Numbered from the stretch's first letter, positions 48,986 to 59,065 are shown. The stretch is 64,000 nt of DNA from an uncultured Candidatus Bathyarchaeia archaeon (GCA_964410135.1 CAYPFQ010000001.1:22560-86559), one strand, 5' to 3'. Notes: generated by a model from the sequence alone, not told the origin. Program-made: numbers and translations.

Positions 48986-49072
48986 TAGTCTTATAGCATA
49001 ACGCTGACTAAAAATACTTATATCTATCCTCTAATTTTGATTTTTAGATGAAATTTTATCGGAGGGAGCTTC

Positions 49073-50722: not shown

Positions 50723-50772
50723 TGGGTTCTCTAAAAATACTTAAATCCATTTTTACCTATTTTGTTGCTGAT

Positions 50773-51047: not shown

Positions 51048-51647
51048 TTGAGGTGGTCTAGGTTTAACAAAGTCATACTGATCACTGGGACACCTGGAAC
51101 AGGTAAGACAACTGTCTCAAGATTGCTGGCTTCTAAGCTGAATATTTTGCATGTTGATATTGGTGAGTTAGTGGCTAATGAAAATCTTGCTTCCGGCATG
51201 GATAAGGAGCGAAAAAGCTTGGTAGCTGACATTCCTAAAGTAGCTAAACGTGTAGAAGAGATTCTGCGGAAATCAAGGGGAGACATCATAGTTGATGGAC
51301 ATTATGCTGCTGATGTGGTTCCGAAAAAACTTCTTTCTTTTGCTTTTGTATTGAGGTGTGATCCTGATGAATTGAAGAAACGATTGGAGAGGGCTGGTGT
51401 AACTGGGAGAAAAAACCTGGAGAATGTAGCTGCTGAGATTTTAGATGTTTGTCTGAGCGATGCTGTAGGCGCCTATGGTACCAATAAGGTCTGCGAAATT
51501 GACACCAGCGGCAAAATTCCCAGAAGGGTAGTGGATGAAATCCTTGCTGTGGTACATGGGGAGACTGAGGCATCTGTTGGAAATGTAGATTGGTTAAAAA
51601 AATTGGAAGTAGAAGGGCGCGTTGAAGAATTTTTGGGGTGGATGTAG
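51048..51647 (+). CDS. putative adenylate kinase, Fap7/AK6 family
   Basis: 199 aa with TTG start. The P-loop ILITGTPGTGKTT and overall size match the archaeal AK6/Fap7 kinase. Confidence 0.8.
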   Translation: MRWSRFNKVILITGTPGTGKTTVSRLLASKLNILHVDIGELVANENLASGMDKERKSLVADIPKVAKRVEEILRKSRGDIIVDGHYAADVVPKKLLSFAFVLRCDPDELKKRLERAGVTGRKNLENVAAEILDVCLSDAVGAYGTNKVCEIDTSGKIPRRVVDEILAVVHGETEASVGNVDWLKKLEVEGRVEEFLGWM

Positions 51648-51842
51648 GCTCTGTATTTAATAATTGCTTGCTATAATTGTGGGCAACTTTTATTGGTAAA
51701 AAGTGGGCAAAAAACTAAGGTTTGCTCTTATTGTGGGTCAAGTTTTCATGTTATTCGAGCTAAGATTATTGCACGCGAGCGCTCTGCAAGGAGAGCTTCT
51801 CTTGTGCTTAGATCGTTGAAAAGGGCAAGAAAAGAGGGCTAA
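51648..51842 (+). CDS. zinc-ribbon reading frame (C-x2-C-x15-C-x2-C plus basic tail) directly in-frame after the TAG stop of the kinase gene; no canonical start before the first CxxC
   Basis: Translation continues ...GWM*ALYLIIACYNCGQLLLVKSGQKTKVCSYCGSSFHVIRAKIIARERSARRASLVLRSLKRARKEG*. The only in-frame ATG, GTG or TTG is a TTG lying between the two CxxC pairs. Confidence 0.35.
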   Translation, partial: ALYLIIACYNCGQLLLVKSGQKTKVCSYCGSSFHVIRAKIIARERSARRASLVLRSLKRARKEG

Positions 51843-53389
51843 GATGTGTTCTGAGCTTCATCTAGATGTGTTTGTATCAGGGTGTACCTAGTCTGCCCAG
51901 TTTTTTCATCGAGTTCTTTTTTGATTATGCCCTTCTCTGATAGCTCATTTAGAATTGGTACCGCTATTGGGTAAAACTCTGAGGTGGATACGACAGTCTT
52001 AATTTCATCATCGGTAAGAGATCCGTATTCTTTGAATAGCTGGTACAGCTTTGTTTGCATAATCAATTTTGCCATGGGCGGTTGCGAAGGTTTCTCTGCA
52101 ATTTCTATGTGGTATTCATAAAATCTTTTTTGCATTGTATTTTTCAGTTGGTCGTCAGATAACTGTGATAGGATTGAGGATTCTGTTTCTACATAGATTG
52201 GGAATGCGTAGGGGATTAGTGGCATGTTTACGATGGCTTCACCAAGTTTGAGATAGTGAAGATAACTTGCCTGTCTCTCAGTGAGCTTCATTGCTCCCTG
52301 CAGAATTTTTCGGTCATCCTCTGTCTTTATTTGGTGACAAATCCTTGTTGCAGCATTTTTCAGAATCTCATAAGAAACCTGTGTTGGAAACTGTGAGATT
52401 ATCACTAATCCTTCACCAAATTTTCTAAGCTCTGAAATCATCTTCTCTCCGATTGATGGCGGGTCTTCAGGGCGTCTGGCTGGGATTATATTGCGGGCTT
52501 CTTCGATTATTGTCACATGTTGGAGTTTAGAAAATTTCTCTTTCGTACGGTAATCATATAGGAGCTTAAGAAAGATTGAAGTGAAAATTTTTCTAATTTC
52601 CTGTTCCTTAAAGTGTCCCAGTTCTACAGACACTATGTCACTTAGAATATCTTCAATTGGGATTGTTGTTTGCCCGTTCAATGCTTTACCTGCCTGTCCC
52701 TCTGTTAGTGGTTTCAGCCTCCTAAGCAGGGCCAATTTGGTTTCATTGTCGTAGGCTGAGCGTATCGGAGCGCGTTCTATCTCCTGAACGATATCTGAGA
52801 CTATAGGTGGCAGCGATGGTTTCTCGCTAAAATAGCCGCATCTTCTATATGTACTCCGCAGTGCTTCCCTAAACATGTACCCTTGCGGCGGTGTGAAGTT
52901 GAATATATCCGTAAAAATATCTGTCACGAGACTCATGTGTTCGCTCAGATCTCCGGAAAGCGAGGGATCCAACGGGTTCACAGTTAATGGTGCTACATCT
53001 TTTCCAGGCGTGAAAACTAACCCATTTTTATGAGATACTATATTCCTGTACTCATTGTGCCAATCAATCACTAATACCTTTATTCCGAGTTCCACAAGTC
53101 TCGATAGAATCACACTGGCAGTTGTTGATTTTCCCGATCCGGTCATTCCGAAGATCGCGATGTGCGTATTCAAGTCTTCGAGACTTAGATGCACCCCGTA
53201 GAGATTGTTCCCATGTTTCTTAACCCAGCCTAAAAATGGACCGTCCCTTCGCACTTCACTTGGTCTTGGGAGATTAAAATAAGGTTCGACTACAAGATCG
53301 ACGGTCGTAGGTGTTGGCATGATAAAATTAGTCAGGGTAACAATTTCAGGTGCGATTAATGTTGAGGTTGAGGAACTGGAAAAGGGCAT
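51839..53389 (-). CDS. DUF87 ATPase (HerA/FtsK/VirB4-like) with C-terminal wHTH-like segment
   Basis: 516 aa. Walker A is FGMTGSGKST. The DWHNEY motif is typical of HerA/VirB4-type ATPases. It is the last gene of the operon. Confidence 0.7.
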   Translation of the reverse strand: MPFSSSSTSTLIAPEIVTLTNFIMPTPTTVDLVVEPYFNLPRPSEVRRDGPFLGWVKKHGNNLYGVHLSLEDLNTHIAIFGMTGSGKSTTASVILSRLVELGIKVLVIDWHNEYRNIVSHKNGLVFTPGKDVAPLTVNPLDPSLSGDLSEHMSLVTDIFTDIFNFTPPQGYMFREALRSTYRRCGYFSEKPSLPPIVSDIVQEIERAPIRSAYDNETKLALLRRLKPLTEGQAGKALNGQTTIPIEDILSDIVSVELGHFKEQEIRKIFTSIFLKLLYDYRTKEKFSKLQHVTIIEEARNIIPARRPEDPPSIGEKMISELRKFGEGLVIISQFPTQVSYEILKNAATRICHQIKTEDDRKILQGAMKLTERQASYLHYLKLGEAIVNMPLIPYAFPIYVETESSILSQLSDDQLKNTMQKRFYEYHIEIAEKPSQPPMAKLIMQTKLYQLFKEYGSLTDDEIKTVVSTSEFYPIAVPILNELSEKGIIKKELDEKTGQTRYTLIQTHLDEAQNTS

Positions 53390-54327
53390 AAAAAATTTCC
53401 TATAGTCTCGAGAAGTTCCACATTTTTGAGTTGTAACGCCTCCATTTCGGGAAAGACGGCGACTATCGCTGCAAGAACGCTGTTCACATTTTCCGCGAGC
53501 CTATTAAGAAGATTATCTAATTCGTTTTTGTCACCATCAGCCCATATGAAAAATAGTACTTCTGTTTGGAAGAATCCTACCTTGCTACCAAGATAAAGCC
53601 TCTTCAACTCAGATTTCTCTTCTTCGAGCATTCTCTCATCCACCGCTCCTAACGTGGCTTTTGAATCTCCTATGTATTTCACATCAGATTCTAATTGCCT
53701 TAGTTTTGACTTGAGTAGTTTTGATTCTGTACTGATTGGGTTAAGAGAAACGACGTAAATGCACGGTATGCCGCGTTTCTGAATACCTGAGAAGAAATCA
53801 CGTAGCTTATAGAATGTGGAAATGTACTCTAGCCGATTTGAGTAGGCCTCATCGCTTATTTCAACCTCAGGAATTCTAGGTCTGCCAGTAAGCCGTATCA
53901 CGGCCATTGCCCTAGCCCTCGATTTTGATTCAAATATCAGCGATCTTCCTTGCATAAGTTTGGCAGCTGTAACATTTAGTGCTTGAAAAATTTCTATTTC
54001 ATTTTTACCAACTACTCTTAACCGAATACCTGCTCGCCGTAGTATTCCAGTAACCTCCGAGGAAAAATGTCGCAGGAGAAGTGCACCGCCAAATAGGAAT
54101 GCGCTTCCTACGATAAGGGGGAGGTCTATCCCGCCAATTTTAGATGGAATTTTAATGCTTGATGACGTAAGCAACCAGCGTAAGTCAAGCAGTATGATAA
54201 TTGCCATGATGATTGGTATGCTAATCTGCATCAATCTGCCATCAGGCTTAGGCATAGGACTACCTTCGGCTAACCGGTCCACATCCAGCTGAATAAGCCT
54301 TGAGCGATCTCTTGTATCTCCTTCCAA
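53356..54327 (-). CDS. membrane-anchored protein (N-terminal TM segments + cytoplasmic domain), unknown family
   Basis: 323 aa with a hydrophobic N-terminal region (IPIIMAIIILLD, LPLIVGSAFLFGGALLL). It overlaps the DUF87 ATPase gene by 34 nt. Confidence 0.35.
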   Translation of the reverse strand: MEGDTRDRSRLIQLDVDRLAEGSPMPKPDGRLMQISIPIIMAIIILLDLRWLLTSSSIKIPSKIGGIDLPLIVGSAFLFGGALLLRHFSSEVTGILRRAGIRLRVVGKNEIEIFQALNVTAAKLMQGRSLIFESKSRARAMAVIRLTGRPRIPEVEISDEAYSNRLEYISTFYKLRDFFSGIQKRGIPCIYVVSLNPISTESKLLKSKLRQLESDVKYIGDSKATLGAVDERMLEEEKSELKRLYLGSKVGFFQTEVLFFIWADGDKNELDNLLNRLAENVNSVLAAIVAVFPEMEALQLKNVELLETIGNFLCPFPVPQPQH

Positions 54328-54491
54328 GTCTGACCGAAAAAGCTGGTGACCATGTTTATGACATTATGTACTAGTCCCAGCATCACGGTCAACATGAATA
54401 GTGCTATGACAAGCAGTAATCCCTCTTCCACTAACTGGGTTGCCGAGGTATTTCTGATCAGATCTAGGATTCGTTTGATTATGCGTTTCAC
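54270..54491 (-). CDS. Flp/type-IV-pilin-like small protein (candidate prepilin)
   Basis: 73 aa. The charged N-terminus MKRIIKRILDLIRNTSATQLVEEG is followed by a hydrophobic helix LLLVIALFMLTVMLGLV, which resembles the Flp prepilin pattern. Confidence 0.4.
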   Translation of the reverse strand: MKRIIKRILDLIRNTSATQLVEEGLLLVIALFMLTVMLGLVHNVINMVTSFFGQTWKEIQEIAQGLFSWMWTG

Positions 54492-54546
54492 TAAAACTCC
54501 TTCCTATGCAAATTTTTCAAGATCTATTTAAGCACCACATCTCACA

Positions 54547-55374
54547 TCAGTAAACAAGAAGCATCGGTAAAAATGAGGTAGCCACAATGAATATCCCCCA
54601 AAAAACTATCAGGGATGCGACAGAGTACATGTACGGGTTTTCAGCAAACGACATCAACCCAGCATAGTATGCAGAGATGCTAGATGTTACTGAAATGGCT
54701 ATTGCAAGAAGCCAGTGCACATTGAATGCTAAATTTGATCTAACAGCTAGATGTGAGATGATGATCGCCGAGAATAGCGGCAGCATGGCTAATAAGATAG
54801 CTGATGATGCCGAACAAGCAACTATTAGAATCTTAATCTTGAAAGACAGCCCCTTTGCTACATGCTCTCTCTCTTCTAGAAGCCTGCGGTTCTCTCGATG
54901 TCTTAAAATAGCTTGTGCCAGATGCTCTCCTGCTTTTTTTGAGTCGGTTTCAATAAGTCTGCAGACCATGAACATCAATGGACGGAGTTTTTTTAAGTTT
55001 GGCTGAGATGCCATATAATCGAACACTGAAACAAGTGGCAAACCACTCGCGATTCTGTTAGATACCTCGAGTAGTTTAGCACGTAATGGTCCGGCATAAT
55101 GGCTAATTGTGTTTTCATATGCAAGCTCTGGGCTGTTGCCTCGTTTTAGTTCCTCAGCAAGAAGCGTCAGAAACGATTCAAATTCACTCACTGCTTGACT
55201 TTCATTAATCTCTTTTTTTGTAAATATGGTCGGTAGCAAAGCCAAGATGGTTATCGTAATTGCAACGAAAGTAATGATGGCTATAGATGGGGTATACGTA
55301 ACTATGTAGATCGCTAGAGCTGCGAGAAAACCACACATAATTCCTGTAATCGTTTGGAACCGAGAGCCTCTCAT
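54547..55374 (-). CDS. TadC/GspF-like pilus platform membrane protein (T2SSF-like domain)
   Basis: 275 aa. TM helices at the N-terminus, a central cytoplasmic helical domain and C-terminal TM helices give the T2SSF topology. Confidence 0.55.
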   Translation of the reverse strand: MRGSRFQTITGIMCGFLAALAIYIVTYTPSIAIITFVAITITILALLPTIFTKKEINESQAVSEFESFLTLLAEELKRGNSPELAYENTISHYAGPLRAKLLEVSNRIASGLPLVSVFDYMASQPNLKKLRPLMFMVCRLIETDSKKAGEHLAQAILRHRENRRLLEEREHVAKGLSFKIKILIVACSASSAILLAMLPLFSAIIISHLAVRSNLAFNVHWLLAIAISVTSSISAYYAGLMSFAENPYMYSVASLIVFWGIFIVATSFLPMLLVY

Positions 55375-56180
55375 CCTAATAGATGCGCCTCGTTTCGCGT
55401 TAATCTATGGAATGTAAGATCCATCAATATGGTGTGAAGTGGAACTATTAAGAAAACATAGGGTGAACTGAATAAGCCCAGCATGGTTATGCCGAAAGAG
55501 AACACTAATGGTAAGAAGAAGCCTGAAGCTATGAAAACAAGTGCCTGACTTTCAAATTGAAGTGAAAACTCCTGGAAATAGCCTCTAACCTCAAACTCAG
55601 ATAAATCAATTAAATGTCGCAGAGTCCCTTCAGTTAGCATGCGCGAGGAGAGAATCTCAATAAGGCCGTGTCGAAATGCTATTGAAGGTTGGCTGTGCGC
55701 ATAATCCATCAATAATTTATCTGGATCTCGCCCGCTAAGAGTCTGAAAACTGACCTCCTTGATTTTCTCAGAGACATAGGGATAGTTTCCCAGTATAATT
55801 GCCTGTAATGCGTCGAATATCGATCCCGTTGATTTAAGAATGAAGTAAAATTCTTGAAGTATCAAGCTTGTATAGCTTGAGATCGTTATTCGTTCTACTC
55901 TTAGTTTATTCGGCAGATAATTGATAAGAAGTAAGAATGAAATATAGCCAAGCGTGATGGAAATGACTGTTGCAATTAAAGAATTTAAATAGAATAGAAT
56001 TGAGAACGTAGCTAACCCAATTGTTGTGGATATGCCCAAGGCGCCGGCTATCACGTCTTCTGGTTTAAATTTATAATAAATCGCGGCATTTTTTGTTAGT
56101 TCACTCAGAGGGATTCTCCTAACAACCTTGAGTGGAATTACTGGCGCAAAAAATGTGAAAGCAGTCCTTATCAGATTCAA
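55371..56180 (-). CDS. TadB/GspF-like pilus platform membrane protein (T2SSF-like domain)
   Basis: 269 aa with the same topology as its neighbour. The two are coupled by 4-nt overlaps, looking like a split FlaJ/TadBC. Confidence 0.55.
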   Translation of the reverse strand: MNLIRTAFTFFAPVIPLKVVRRIPLSELTKNAAIYYKFKPEDVIAGALGISTTIGLATFSILFYLNSLIATVISITLGYISFLLLINYLPNKLRVERITISSYTSLILQEFYFILKSTGSIFDALQAIILGNYPYVSEKIKEVSFQTLSGRDPDKLLMDYAHSQPSIAFRHGLIEILSSRMLTEGTLRHLIDLSEFEVRGYFQEFSLQFESQALVFIASGFFLPLVFSFGITMLGLFSSPYVFLIVPLHTILMDLTFHRLTRNEAHLLG

Positions 56181-57751
56181 TGTTCAAATCTCGCATCGTG
56201 CTGTCTAAGAAACTCAAGGAATTCATCCCAGTCGGCGGATCCATCTTGTTCCCATCCTATTTTTGTGGCGTGTAGATAATGGAATATCTCTACATTTTCT
56301 CTAACTCCAAAAATCTGGTTTTGAGCGAGCATCTTGAAGAGTTTTTTGTAAGCATTGTATTCGTCATAAAATTTTGCGCTATCAATATGCTCTATTTTTA
56401 TAATTTTTTGAAATACGGGAGCTTCAGTTAGATCGCATGCCAACTTTAATGTGGAGTCAGCTGGATCCCATGAGAAGATGTCCTGTAAATTTATTGTCGA
56501 GATGTCTAGGCAAACCGGTTTATTAGGTAAAGCAACTTCACAAATCTTTATAACTCTTCGCACATCTTTTCCAGAGATACGTAGCTTTTTAGTTTGAACG
56601 ATTAAATCTAAGTCAAAGAAGCATATGACTGGAACTTTGTGATGGGTAGCCCATCGGACGATCGCCTGTTCAGGTGATGCCGCATGACAGGTTTGAAGCC
56701 CTTTTAGACCTGCTGCGAGAGCATGAAACATGGCTAAACTATGCTCAGCTGTTTGGATTTCTCCCAGATAGATCCAATCAGGTGCCCTATGCAGTAATTT
56801 TATAATCTCAACGCTCTTTGTTAGGCCTTCGCGGTCGAGGGATTCGAACGGTTTAACTTTGAGCCGGATTTGGTGATTGCCAAATTTGGTTTGCGGAATG
56901 CTTTCAACCACATCTTCTACAGTTATTTTTCGCCACTCAGGGGGAGTCAGCAGGTCTATCGTATTAATCAGCGTGGTTTTTCCAGATCCGGGTTCGCCGA
57001 TGACAGTTATATTCCGTTTTCTCGTCAAGCAAAAGTAAAGGTAGGCCGCTGCTTCAGAGGTTAGTGTACCGTTAAAGATCAATTCTGGTAGAGTGAAATA
57101 TTTTCTCCGTAATTTTCTGATATCTAGATGTGCACCGTCAACCGATAATGGAGGGATATCGATCGAGAATCTGGCTTGGAAATCGTTTGCGAATAGCTCT
57201 GTTTTTAAAGAAGGGTTTATGGCATCTAGCCGTAGCCCACTTTCTGCTCTTAGTCTAGTCTTTAGAGCCGAGACTTCTCTCCCAGATAAGTGTATGTTTG
57301 TTCGGCAACGTCCCCATCGCCGGTGATCTATGTATAAAAACCCATCCGGATTGTCCAAGAAGATCTCGTCAACATCTTCGTCAAGCAAGAAGGGCATTAT
57401 CTTCAAAAGACGCATTGATCTGTAGGCCGCTAGAATTGAGAGGGTATTAACTTTACCCTCCGGTAAGACTGGGTATTTCAGCTTCAATTGATTTTTAGCT
57501 TCGGTAATCCTTTCTGCTGTTAAATCTTGAAATTTTGGAAATTGACAGTTTGACAAATTAGAATTTAACCTAAGTGCCTTAACTAGCTCATCGATGATTC
57601 CCTTTAATTGGTAATAACTGGCATCGGGGGATATATGGTAAAAACATTCAGACATCTTAGGTAATTGAGGTTCGTAGATTCTAATCCTATACGGTCCAAC
57701 AGCATGTTCTTCTACAAAATTACACGAATTCAAAATTGAATCCGACATCAA
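56177..57751 (-). CDS. type II/IV secretion-family ATPase (TadA/FlaI/VirB11-like)
   Basis: 524 aa. Walker A is VIGEPGSGKTTLINTI. The downstream GEI...His-box region is WIYLGEIQTAEHSLAMFHALAAGLKGLQTCHAAS. The N-terminal domain has the typical length. Confidence 0.8.
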   Translation of the reverse strand: MMSDSILNSCNFVEEHAVGPYRIRIYEPQLPKMSECFYHISPDASYYQLKGIIDELVKALRLNSNLSNCQFPKFQDLTAERITEAKNQLKLKYPVLPEGKVNTLSILAAYRSMRLLKIMPFLLDEDVDEIFLDNPDGFLYIDHRRWGRCRTNIHLSGREVSALKTRLRAESGLRLDAINPSLKTELFANDFQARFSIDIPPLSVDGAHLDIRKLRRKYFTLPELIFNGTLTSEAAAYLYFCLTRKRNITVIGEPGSGKTTLINTIDLLTPPEWRKITVEDVVESIPQTKFGNHQIRLKVKPFESLDREGLTKSVEIIKLLHRAPDWIYLGEIQTAEHSLAMFHALAAGLKGLQTCHAASPEQAIVRWATHHKVPVICFFDLDLIVQTKKLRISGKDVRRVIKICEVALPNKPVCLDISTINLQDIFSWDPADSTLKLACDLTEAPVFQKIIKIEHIDSAKFYDEYNAYKKLFKMLAQNQIFGVRENVEIFHYLHATKIGWEQDGSADWDEFLEFLRQHDARFEH

Positions 57752-57764
57752 TAGTCCTCAATAG

Positions 57765-58211
57765 TCATCTGGGCGCTCTAAGGCGCTCAACTATTGCGGG
57801 CACGTATTCGCTGATAGCGTCTATGATGCCATTGACACTAGCCTCTAGTGATGCAATCCTAGCTTCAAGATCGCTTTGAATTGGGCCATCAGGCGCGATT
57901 CTAACTTCCTGGGATAGTTTAGAAAATGCTAGAGCTAGTTTATTTACCTCCTCCTGCAGCGACTGGATAAACAACCTTTGCCTTTCAAATTCCTCCTGTA
58001 ATAACGTCAAACTCTCCTTATCCGAGGTAGATATTTGATCAGCCGCCGAGTTATTCGACATAGTGTCAGCATGGATCTCGTTGATTGCCTGCTCTACTTT
58101 CTCACCTGGAAATCCTAATTCTAGTAGCACATTTTTAATTGCGGTGGTTGAAACTCCGCTTCGAAGCATGGCATTTGCCAATTCGTCAACTGTTTTTTTG
58201 ATGGTCTTCAC
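57765..58211 (-). CDS. coiled-coil protein (148 aa)
   Basis: Helical, heptad-rich protein in the same operon. Confidence 0.3.
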   Translation of the reverse strand: MKTIKKTVDELANAMLRSGVSTTAIKNVLLELGFPGEKVEQAINEIHADTMSNNSAADQISTSDKESLTLLQEEFERQRLFIQSLQEEVNKLALAFSKLSQEVRIAPDGPIQSDLEARIASLEASVNGIIDAISEYVPAIVERLRAPR

Positions 58212-58504
58212 CCAGCCCTCTGAAACTCTCTTTGCAATTCTATCCTGTTCACGATCTTCACATAGGTTTTCAGAGACGCTATTTTCAGCTCAAATAAGCG
58301 TTGAGTGAACTCTATGCGAGATTTTATAGATGCGACGGCTTCCTCCATCAACAGTAGTTGAGACTTCAAAGAACGTAGCTCACTGCATAGGCTGTTGAAT
58401 CCAAGCTTTAGATCTGCGATTTCTTCCGCAATCTCAAAAAAAGAATCATTGTGGTTTAGCTTAGATTGTGAGTGCAATGAATGGCGCCTAACGTTCATCT
58501 GCAA
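58208..58504 (-). CDS. coiled-coil protein (98 aa)
   Basis: Helical protein with a 4-nt overlap onto the downstream gene. Confidence 0.3.
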   Translation of the reverse strand: MQMNVRRHSLHSQSKLNHNDSFFEIAEEIADLKLGFNSLCSELRSLKSQLLLMEEAVASIKSRIEFTQRLFELKIASLKTYVKIVNRIELQREFQRAG

Positions 58505-58542
58505 GGCACCTTTAAAGAACCACGAATTAGAATACGCGAAAT

Positions 58543-58758
58543 CTAAGCGACTGTTTCTGCTGTTGCGAATCTATTGCCAACTTGAGTAACCTTAATTCTC
58601 ACATGGTCGCCAGGCTTTGTATTAGGCACAAATATTACGAACCCTTGGATCCTAGCAATGCCTTCTCCCCGTCGACTCAGCTCCTGTATATCCACTTCGT
58701 ATTCCTTTCCTACTTCTACTGGCTTTGGACCGCCAAAGCTTCGCCTTCTGTAGCTCAC
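58543..58758 (-). CDS. TRAM-domain nucleic-acid-binding protein
   Basis: 71 aa. VGKEYEVDIQELSRRGEGIARIQGFVIFVPNTKPGDHVRIKVTQV is the stand-alone archaeal TRAM pattern. Confidence 0.7.
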   Translation of the reverse strand: MSYRRRSFGGPKPVEVGKEYEVDIQELSRRGEGIARIQGFVIFVPNTKPGDHVRIKVTQVGNRFATAETVA

Positions 58759-58759
58759 T

Positions 58760-59065
58760 TTATTTCCCTCCTTTGACTACGTTTAATTTACCGTACTTTT
58801 TACCGACACTAAGCTGAATTTCGCCTCTGAAGGCTGTCACATAACCGTTCTCAATTTGCACAGTATCACCAACTGAAACCCCGTCTATTTGCTCGTTCCA
58901 CAAAACTAGTTTAATGGAGCCAGTCGCATCGGATATTACGGCATTTGCTACCCTATGTACATTGTAACCATATCTTGAGTAAACTTCTCGGCTCGCGGAT
59001 TTTTCAACAACTTTTCCGGTTACATTGACCTGTTTCATTCCAGTTTTTAATTCCTTAATCTGCAT
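58760..59065 (-). CDS. OB-fold nucleic-acid-binding protein (SSB/RPA-like single OB domain)
   Basis: 101 aa. MQIKELKTGMKQVNVTGKVVEKS...ISDATGSIKLVLWNEQ...GDTVQIENGYV is a typical tRNA_anti/RPA-type OB-fold sequence. Confidence 0.55.
   Translation of the reverse strand: MQIKELKTGMKQVNVTGKVVEKSASREVYSRYGYNVHRVANAVISDATGSIKLVLWNEQIDGVSVGDTVQIENGYVTAFRGEIQLSVGKKYGKLNVVKGGK

Follow-up and report, generated by a model that had tools for sequence, protein, structure and literature searches.

In the Sulfolobales, DNA import brings together a contact type IV pilus, Ups, and the HerA-like membrane ATPase of the Ced system, which are encoded in separate, co-regulated loci (PMC11823120). CedD is essential for this import and dispensable for aggregation (PMC11823120, PMC11868833), its homologue TedD is found in Ted loci together with a ParA (PMC11823120, PMC9905601), and the N-terminal domains of CedB and CedD resemble the N-terminal domain of VirB4 (PMC11868833). 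Ced and Ted are confined to hyperthermophilic Crenarchaeota, and the passage of DNA across archaeal membranes is poorly known outside the Sulfolobales; natural transformation of Methanococcus needs type IV-like pili and MinD/ParA proteins (PMC10133366), with the translocase of methanogens not identified. A further set of related parts is carried by integrative and conjugative elements (ICEs) of Thaumarchaeota, which encode VirB4-type and FlaI-type ATPases, TadC, prepilin peptidase, pilins and a TFIIB paralogue (PMC6563490). Here we describe an operon, E-F1-F2-p-XH, on a 64,000-nucleotide stretch of DNA from an uncultured Candidatus Bathyarchaeia archaeon (GCA_964410135.1 CAYPFQ010000001.1:22560-86559, hereafter the window), which unites, as one inherited unit, the complete core for pilus assembly and a VirB4/CedD-like ATPase that is catalytically intact. 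Close homologues also label the organism as Bathyarchaeia, and the contig of the window was recovered in three independent assemblies (L001-L003).

The core of the locus consists of six open reading frames (ORFs), denoted E for the secretion ATPase, F1 and F2 for the platform, p for the pilin, and X and H for the two halves of a second motor (XH). Listed 5' to 3', with lengths in amino acids (aa), they are:

56177..57751, minus strand: E, type IV pilus/secretion-family hexameric ATPase, 524 aa (TTG start), PF00437
55371..56180, minus strand: F1, platform protein resembling TadB/TadC, one T2SSF-type domain, 269 aa, assigned at family-profile level
54547..55374, minus strand: F2, second TadB/TadC-like platform protein, 275 aa, assigned at family-profile level
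54270..54491, minus strand: p, short type IV prepilin of Flp-like design, 73 aa from a GTG, about 55 aa when mature, assigned by its conserved motif
53356..54327, minus strand: X, membrane-anchored N-terminal half of a split CedD/VirB4-like ATPase, 323 aa (TTG start)
51839..53389, minus strand: H, P-loop motor half of the same split ATPase, 516 aa, PF01935

A preliminary description of the window, made without database searches, had reported ten minus-strand ORFs at 51839-59065, and all ten are present there. It had them joined by overlaps or gaps of 1-4 nucleotides (nt) and one 38-nt gap; the packing is indeed tight and less uniform than that, with intergenic gaps of 1, 38, 13 and 55 nt. Three pairs of genes overlap by 4 nt, and the 323-aa and 516-aa ORFs by 34 nt; the 73-aa ORF overlaps the 323-aa ORF by 58 nt if the latter begins at its TTG, and is separated from it by 14 nt if the start is ATG 54255. 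Pfam and NCBIfam profile scans bore out the four domain assignments made beforehand (OB, TRAM, secretion ATPase and DUF87), while the 98-aa, 148-aa, 269-aa, 275-aa, 73-aa and 323-aa proteins of the window matched no curated family. The ten genes had also been presented as one system, a view that gives way here to a core of six genes with two lineage-specific accessories, the OB and TRAM genes lying outside.

This smaller outline rests on a comparison of 85 loci, 80 of them encoding proteins related to the HerA-like ATPase, with each species represented by one genome, and five obtained through exact look-ups, all searched with iteratively built profiles, one for each window protein. Loci with at least 4.6 kilobases (kb) of sequence upstream of a full-length HerA-like gene were treated as informative (n = 59). 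E-F1-F2-p-XH was complete and in the order of the window in 56 of these 59, and loci with the conserved core carried four lineage labels: Bathyarchaeia, Nitrososphaerota/Thaumarchaeota, Brockarchaeota and Thermoprotei/Thermoproteota. As a control, 80 metagenomic loci were picked by generic secretion-ATPase patterns; two proved to belong to the E-XH family and 78 were unrelated, and none of these 78 unrelated pilus/Tad-type ATPase loci had a HerA-like gene within 7 kb. The adjacency of the six genes that run from the secretion ATPase to the HerA-like gene is therefore far beyond chance. Splitting or scrambling of the locus in relatives had been named beforehand as a sign of accidental adjacency, and the fixed order together with the empty controls disposes of that possibility for the core genes. 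We are highly confident in the anatomy of the E-F1-F2-p-XH operon and in the coupling of its genes, and it is an anciently conserved chromosomal operon of Thermoproteota archaea.

In the window a Fap7/adenylate-kinase-like gene lies at 51048-51647 on the plus strand (AAA_18, E-value 2.2e-24). Across classes, 52 of the 59 informative loci have its counterpart converging on the HerA-like gene, and in several lineages a thermosome gene comes next. The operon is at a fixed chromosomal position and not mobile. The 3' ends of the Fap7-like and HerA-like genes usually overlap by about 45-70 nt in Nitrososphaerota, and the two form an unusually stable convergent gene pair.

The first motor, E, is a secretion-family ATPase, as had been proposed. 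It scored well above the gathering cutoff of the PF00437 T2SSE profile (E-value 1.5e-17; 63.8 bits against 24.9), and the four catalytic boxes can be read in its translation (Walker A GEPGSGKTT, Asp box ITVEDVVE, Walker B DWIYLGEIQ and His box GLQTCHA); the public record gives it 523 aa from an ATG at 57748. Its top NCBIfam matches were FlaI (4.5e-32) and TadA (1.8e-26), all under the equivalog cutoffs (FlaI 111.5 bits against 550, TadA 93 against 373, VirB11 73 against 250). The best solved relatives were afGspE of Archaeoglobus (2oap, 9e-29), FlaI (6e-25), CpaF (8e-19) and VirB11 (1e-8), so the earlier likening of E to VirB11 has to be dropped in favour of the archaeal GspE/FlaI/CpaF group. 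Homologues of E stood directly upstream of platform genes in 65 of the 85 loci.

F1 and F2 had been taken for a split TadB/TadC pair with T2SSF topology. The topology fits, with hydrophobic segments at about 43-90 and 209-252 flanking a soluble helical region in F1 and at 6-54, 176-233 and 247-275 in F2, whereas the two window proteins themselves gave no Pfam hit. Support comes from their family profiles. A hidden Markov model (HMM) of the F2 family matched 38 ORFs in 32 unrelated pilus-ATPase loci, those checked being Pfam T2SSF at 1e-16 to 3e-22, and the F1 family HMM retrieved proteins adjoining unrelated pilus ATPases with Pfam T2SSF matches of 1.6e-12 to 7e-19; six ORFs retrieved by the two HMMs were checked against Pfam and all were bona fide T2SSF proteins (1e-12 to 3e-22). 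Pfam T2SSF was also matched directly by five of 20 F2 family members (best 1.2e-4), and the best solved matches of the F2 family profile were PilC (3jc8, 0.0014) and GspF (0.029). F1 and F2 are thus assigned to T2SSF by family profiles and not by their single sequences, and they are paralogues, their families aligning in hhalign with a probability of 91.7% (E-value 7.8e-7). An AlphaFold2 model of F1 from a seven-sequence alignment was poor (predicted local distance difference test score 60, predicted template modelling score 0.38) and was set aside before fold comparison.

The p gene, with homologues in 74 of the 85 loci, is always flanked by F2 on one side and the HerA-like gene on the other. 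Across 72 non-identical aligned homologues, inspection by eye and alignment gave a common pattern of a basic leader, the motif [G/A]|xQL[I/V]EE[A/G]LL and one hydrophobic helix, and residues E22, E23 and L26 were invariant in a 24-member alignment. The protein thus has the marks of a type IV (class III signal) prepilin, namely a basic leader, G or A at -1 of the cleavage site, Glu at +5 and a hydrophobic helix forming its one transmembrane segment; an amphipathic tail follows the cleavage site. The prepilin-type N-terminus is conserved, whereas the label Flp-like finds no counterpart in Pfam: none of 24 family members matched Flp_Fap (PF04964) at E-values up to 1. Searches of the p family against Pfam and the PDB likewise gave nothing significant, the sole pilin match being a Geobacter pilin at an E-value of 0.36, and the p profile did not match CedA1, TedC or VirB2 chains in the PDB sequence set (CedA1 and TedC at E-values up to 10). 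The p gene (L001 8899-9120) is not called in the public record of the contig despite its conservation in 74 of the 85 loci.

The second motor is divided between X and H. The 323-aa membrane-anchored protein had been read as a separate component of the machine, yet it aligns with the N-terminal domain of fused homologues of 570-790 aa, and the two parts are fused as one gene in 54 of the 59 informative loci; X and H are therefore the two halves of one protein. X is more likely 299 aa long from ATG 54255, the start in the public record, which is consistent with the homologue alignment. A sequencing frameshift was considered for the split and rejected, since the split is seen in all three assemblies of the contig and, with a different junction, in L004 and L005, and several clusters consist of H alone (491-511 aa); the gene fission is thus real, and it occurs in a subclade of Bathyarchaeia. 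X has two transmembrane helices, which are kept in Brockarchaeota, Thermoprotei and Bathyarchaeia and missing from the Nitrososphaerota versions. Its fold is VirB4-like, with an N-terminal domain resembling TrwK/VirB4, and XH has the architecture of VirB4, in which a VirB4-type N-terminal domain stands ahead of the P-loop domain.

H matched PF01935 (DUF87) at 2.6e-22, and its Walker A, Walker B (EE) and ELRKFG motifs are invariant in the family. Its best NCBIfam match was CedD (NF053655; 7.4e-57, 193 bits against an equivalog cutoff of 600, over model positions 211-522 only), so the HerA/VirB4-like ATPase that had been noticed beside the pilus set has a DNA-import ATPase as its nearest curated family. 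Other models scored far lower (HerA_Thermprot 76.5 bits against 800, helicase_HerA 51.5 against 970, CedB 20 bits), including VirB4 (TIGR00929), at 42.2 bits against 643, and the best solved relative was HerA (4d2i, 3e-24). CedD was also the best family for six fused XH relatives (164-190 bits). A profile of the N-terminal domain alone retrieved 56 clusters among 1.84 billion representative proteins; ten long, weak hits of this profile were compared with NCBIfam, of which seven had CedD as best family (139-254 bits) and three matched nothing, and one distant hit aligned over CedD model positions 16-484, N-terminal region included. XH therefore forms a narrow branch of its own among the CedD-like ATPases, built on the VirB4 plan, and is neither a CedD orthologue nor a canonical or defence HerA. 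That the DUF87 protein might be a canonical HerA had been raised as a possible objection, which the score (76 bits against 800) and the absence of NurA, Mre11 and Rad50 genes from the window locus answer. H also carries a C-terminal extension of about 80 aa, shared with two fused Bathyarchaeia relatives, which looks like a winged helix judging from a weak Cdc6_C match in Pfam (0.075) and its sequence pattern.

Further genes accompany the operon upstream in relatives. A TFIIB paralogue lies upstream of the ATPase in 50 loci. It precedes a divergent operon, present in most relatives, whose three to six small products have pilin-like N-termini and resemble minor pilins. An A24 prepilin-peptidase-like gene belongs to this operon in L004 and L016, scoring just below the cutoff (3.1e-5 and 1.1e-3), and in L004 a ParA/MinD-like gene is found upstream of the ATPase. 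A search of the 64-kb window for the TFIIB paralogue and ParA of the relatives found neither. The gene sets lie at:

L004 273-3458, L016 2159-5009, L020 4152-6195, L033 4395-6365, and others: upstream gene sets of relatives

Our locus has much in common with the Ced and Ted systems. XH shares with CedD/TedD, and with CedB, a HerA/VirB4-superfamily P-loop ATPase domain, an optional N-terminal anchor, a VirB4-like N-terminal fold and a chromosomal location, CedD was the best curated match for every XH family member tested that matched any family, and ParA-like and TFIIB-type genes are nearby in some loci (PMC9905601). XH differs from CedD in scoring at about a third of the equivalog cutoff and, in this lineage, in being encoded by two genes. 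It is accompanied by components of a type IV pilus (ATPase, TadB/TadC and Flp-like pilin), whereas the partners in Ced and Ted are a CedA/VirB6-like channel and the VirB2-like pilins CedA1/TedC, and family scans of the locus returned neither a CedA/TedA channel nor a CedA1/TedC pilin. Unlike Ced and Ted, XH is part of a single fixed operon, which occurs in Bathyarchaeia, Nitrososphaerota and Brockarchaeota and not in Sulfolobales, Desulfurococcales or Thermoproteales. The pairing of Ups with Ced is comparable in its parts, but here the pilus genes and the ATPase are together in one operon, with no known link to ultraviolet light or DNA damage.

The pilus half of the operon shares its layout with Tad (Flp) and Epd pili, in which a single secretion ATPase is likewise followed by two single-domain TadB/TadC-like platform proteins; the tiny pilin, with its cleavage site after G or A and its Glu at +5, and the ParA/TadZ-like ATPase upstream in one relative, extend the likeness. 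Differences from Tad/Epd are the absence of a Pfam Flp_Fap match, of a secretin and of Rcp proteins, an ATPase nearer to archaeal GspE/FlaI than to CpaF, and the HerA-like ATPase, which the Tad/Epd loci of the control set lack (0/78). With a minimal VirB4 and VirB11 core the operon shares two hexameric ATPases from the same superfamily branches and a small hydrophobic pilin, but E is not VirB11 (1e-8 against 9e-29 for its best solved relative) and VirB3, VirB6, VirB8 and VirD4 are missing. The ICEs of Thaumarchaeota also carry VirD4, VirB6, VirB3, ParB, integrases and replication genes, none of which is present at this locus, and they are non-syntenic, whereas our operon keeps a fixed housekeeping position and an order conserved across classes.

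The composition of the locus had been thought undescribed, which is too strong, as thaumarchaeal ICEs join VirB4 and VirD4 with FlaI, TadC, prepilin peptidase, pilins and TFIIB (PMC6563490) and Ted loci contain TedD and ParA. The parts and the idea are already known; not described before are their arrangement as one fixed operon, its wide occurrence in uncultured Thermoproteota and the fission of the motor gene. The operon does not feature in the open-access full text of a census of archaeal type IV pili (PMC4858521), a survey of pili in ammonia-oxidising archaea (PMC7554672) or the CedD papers, and searches of open-access text yielded neither a pilus locus linked to HerA nor any mention of CedD homologues from Thaumarchaeota or Bathyarchaeia.

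By analogy with these systems, we see roughly an even chance that the operon encodes a Tad/Epd-like pilus machine with a CedD/VirB4-like ATPase for DNA uptake or exchange, and we place DNA as the substrate of XH just short of even. The broader proposal, that E-F1-F2-p-XH is an ancestral, chromosomally fixed DNA-uptake or exchange apparatus of the radiation of Bathyarchaeia, Nitrososphaeria and Brockarchaeia, with pilus and translocase working as one machine, is tentative, a serious possibility that stops short of being probable. In such an apparatus, an A24 prepilin peptidase would cut the leader of p after the conserved G/A, and hexameric E, docked on the F1/F2 platform, would polymerise the processed p into a thin pilus, a type IV pilus in place of the VirB2-type pilus of Ced and Ted. 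A hexamer of XH would sit at the membrane at the base of the pilus machine, held by X in this lineage and, in lineages without the anchor, presumably attached through the platform, and would move DNA across the membrane, with the pilus providing cell contact or DNA capture; we infer the direction of transport, as we do the physical coupling of XH to the pilus machine. The DNA-moving role is suggested by analogy with CedD and CedB, which serve DNA import in Sulfolobales, and with VirB4 and VirD4. The proposal of DNA as the cargo draws on the import role of CedD, the TedD and ParA of Ted loci, the Methanococcus pili with their MinD/ParA proteins, and the HerA-like ATPase that drives DNA donation in Thermus (PMC5365140).

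Several observations weigh against DNA transport. H scores at a third of the CedD cutoff, and by sequence the ATPase domain alone matches. VirB4 mainly powers pilus biogenesis and not DNA pumping, hence homology to it fits a purely pilus-related role of XH equally well. The operon encodes no CedA/VirB6-like channel, VirD4, relaxase or nuclease, and as the Nitrososphaerota XH proteins have no membrane anchor, XH alone could not form a channel there. Within the 64-kb window we found neither an A24 peptidase gene nor an operon of pilin-like (minor pilin) proteins, p matches none of the known pilin families significantly, and the C-terminal tail of H gave nothing significant against the PDB.

Much of this would suit an operon that makes an adhesion or aggregation pilus only, in which XH is a second assembly, retraction or scaffold ATPase and no nucleic acid is moved. 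XH might then act as VirB4 does in extracting pilin from the membrane, or like the FlaH/KaiC-type ATPases of archaeal pili. The N-terminal domain of X resembles a protein whose core role is pilus biogenesis, the Nitrososphaerota versions lack transmembrane helices, the operon has no channel, nuclease or DNA-binding component, and p is very small and hydrophobic, with a size like that of VirB2-type pilins. Accessory RecA-fold ATPases are, moreover, common in archaeal pilus loci (PMC4858521). On the other hand, the operon already has a dedicated pilus ATPase in E, such a second ATPase was seen in 0/78 of the other pilus-ATPase loci sampled, and CedD, the closest characterised relative of XH, is dispensable for aggregation and essential for DNA import (PMC11823120). 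We consider a pilus-only function rather unlikely, although as the main rival it has to be taken seriously beside the DNA-exchange apparatus.

On a different view of its origin, the operon would be the conjugation module of an integrated element, now decayed or domesticated, that exports host DNA, and not an ancestral cellular system. The repertoire of thaumarchaeal ICEs (PMC6563490) is the set of genes found around the cluster in relatives, and Ced and Ted are themselves regarded as domesticated conjugation machinery (PMC9905601). The locus, however, lacks what defines an ICE. We found no integrase or convincing flanking repeat at the locus, in agreement with the preliminary description, and no tRNA gene there or elsewhere in 40-64 kb; nor does the window locus have VirD4, VirB6, replication genes or a variable location. 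Gene order and the housekeeping neighbours (Fap7-like and thermosome genes) are the same across classes, whereas ICE modules are non-syntenic (PMC6563490), and the guanine-plus-cytosine content of the locus is only slightly below that of the surrounding window. A domesticated module is in our view improbable. One candidate attachment site, a 31-nt pair of 74% identity at 51761 and 59226, has both copies in coding sequence and was judged to be a chance match.

The remaining genes of the ten-ORF block lie upstream of E, and include two coiled-coil genes, c3 and c4:

57765..58211, minus strand: c4, cytoplasmic coiled-coil accessory, 148 aa, no family match and no transmembrane segment
58208..58504, minus strand: c3, small coiled-coil accessory, 98 aa (96 aa from ATG 58498), no family match
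58543-59065, minus strand: OB and TRAM gene pair, 1 nt apart and 38 nt upstream of c3

Homologues of c4 were directly upstream of E in ten of the 85 loci, in Bathyarchaeia and some Thermoprotei metagenome-assembled genomes (MAGs) only, and homologues of c3 were upstream of c4 in five of the 85, all Bathyarchaeia. Both encode lineage-specific cytoplasmic accessories.

The OB and TRAM proteins had been counted as components of the machine, and if all ten genes formed one DNA-translocation system these two might handle transported single-stranded DNA or RNA. They share the strand and close spacing of the operon, both folds bind nucleic acids, and Methanococcus transformation requires an OB-fold membrane protein (PMC10133366). 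The OB protein of the window (101 aa) has an Ssb-like OB fold (PF21473, 1.2e-12, 48 bits against 24), but it has no transmembrane helix, and it scored 87 bits against 188 for crenarchaeal SSB (PRK06461 equivalogs), being a bare OB domain without the acidic tail. The TRAM protein (71 aa; PF01938, 1.9e-17) passes the cutoff for the PyTRAM RNA chaperone (NF053605, 92.5 bits against 85). OB and TRAM genes were found with the pilus cluster only in the copies of the window's own contig (L001-L003); the next closest locus, L004, in which the HerA-like protein is 64% identical, has a ParA/MinD-like gene in their place. Homologues of the OB protein number about 1000 at 60-87% identity across Bathyarchaeia, against eight for F1, and it is thus far more conserved than the pilus genes. 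In four further contexts from Bathyarchaeia (L086-L090) the two genes are adjacent and neither pilus nor HerA genes are present. In the close relative represented by L089/L090 (OB 85%, TRAM 89% and inositol-phosphate synthase 76% identical) the whole upstream block is shared, consisting of a 250-aa gene, HSP20, a 165-aa gene, Ino1, OB and TRAM, and is followed by unrelated genes. TATA-like AT-rich elements are found upstream of OB, with a weak one about 30 nt upstream of the c3 ATG. As the OB-TRAM pair is conserved elsewhere without pilus genes, it is an independent housekeeping pair and a coincidental neighbour, placed beside the pilus operon by a lineage-specific rearrangement. The ten-gene reading is largely refuted as a conserved design, and we give it very little credence.

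The order within the OB-TRAM pair varies in Bathyarchaeia (L086 5711-6291; L087 6001-6663; L089 8001-8550), and in L086 and L087 a gene for a FEN1/5'-3' exonuclease is close to the pair, a hint that these genes have a housekeeping role with nucleic acids in common.

That the HerA-like ATPase is an anti-phage defence protein or a canonical repair HerA merely lying beside a pilus operon is scarcely credible: PADLOC HerA models match H at 2.5e-21, mads_8 does so at 3.5e-17 and solved defence HerA proteins at 1e-16 to 1e-20, but the PADLOC matches reach at most 74 bits where CedD reaches 193, the NCBIfam scores are 35 bits against 800 for antiphage HerA and 76 against 800 for repair HerA, no Sir2, DUF4297, NurA, Mre11 or Rad50 partner is present at the window locus, and 56 of 59 loci keep the gene at the same place relative to the pilus genes.

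The operon is a concrete candidate, open to testing, for how genes are exchanged in uncultured archaea that are among the most abundant, many of the Nitrososphaerota/Thaumarchaeota MAGs that carry it coming from soil, peat and hot springs, and it offers a natural experiment in how type IV pilus and type IV secretion modules combine. If the proposed DNA-exchange apparatus is real, it would be the first candidate competence system for the radiation of Bathyarchaeia, Nitrososphaeria and Brockarchaeia, and would form a mechanistic and evolutionary bridge from pilus-based competence to type IV-secretion-like DNA transfer. Annotation gains in any case, by adding the gene for the 73-aa pilin, joining X with H and keeping OB and TRAM outside the system.

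Some smaller features were observed around the operon. A zinc-ribbon ORF (window 51693-51842, plus strand, 49 aa from a TTG, motif CSYCGSSF) is convergent to H and overlaps its stop codon, with a first CxxC pair (CYNCG) in its frame ahead of every possible ATG, GTG or TTG start. The same place in L004, L006 and L016 is occupied by homologues of 67-83 aa, the one in L006 matching Pfam DUF1922 (7e-8). In three Bathyarchaeia loci a small Mrr_cat gene, PD-(D/E)xK nuclease-like, lies between the HerA-like and Fap7-like genes on the strand of the former, and is absent from the window:

L004 11752-12099, L005 3706-4134, L006 11702-12049: Mrr_cat genes

In the window, a 20-nt AT-rich direct repeat (49008-49027 and 50731-50750, 90% identical) brackets the thermosome gene.

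Fragments of the 3' part of XH (about 270-320 aa) were also found beside the Fap7-like gene in several Nitrososphaerota genomes (L046 18264-19238, L068 10001-10915 and L070 10100-10924). A full-length XH lies 8-19 kb from the fragment in L046 and in a contig common to L049 and L070, and none was present within the fetched flank of L068. A gene of 407-436 aa with weak Phage_integrase matches (8e-4 and 9e-3) abuts the fragment in L068 and L070, which suggests that a mobile element has integrated into the 3' part of XH.

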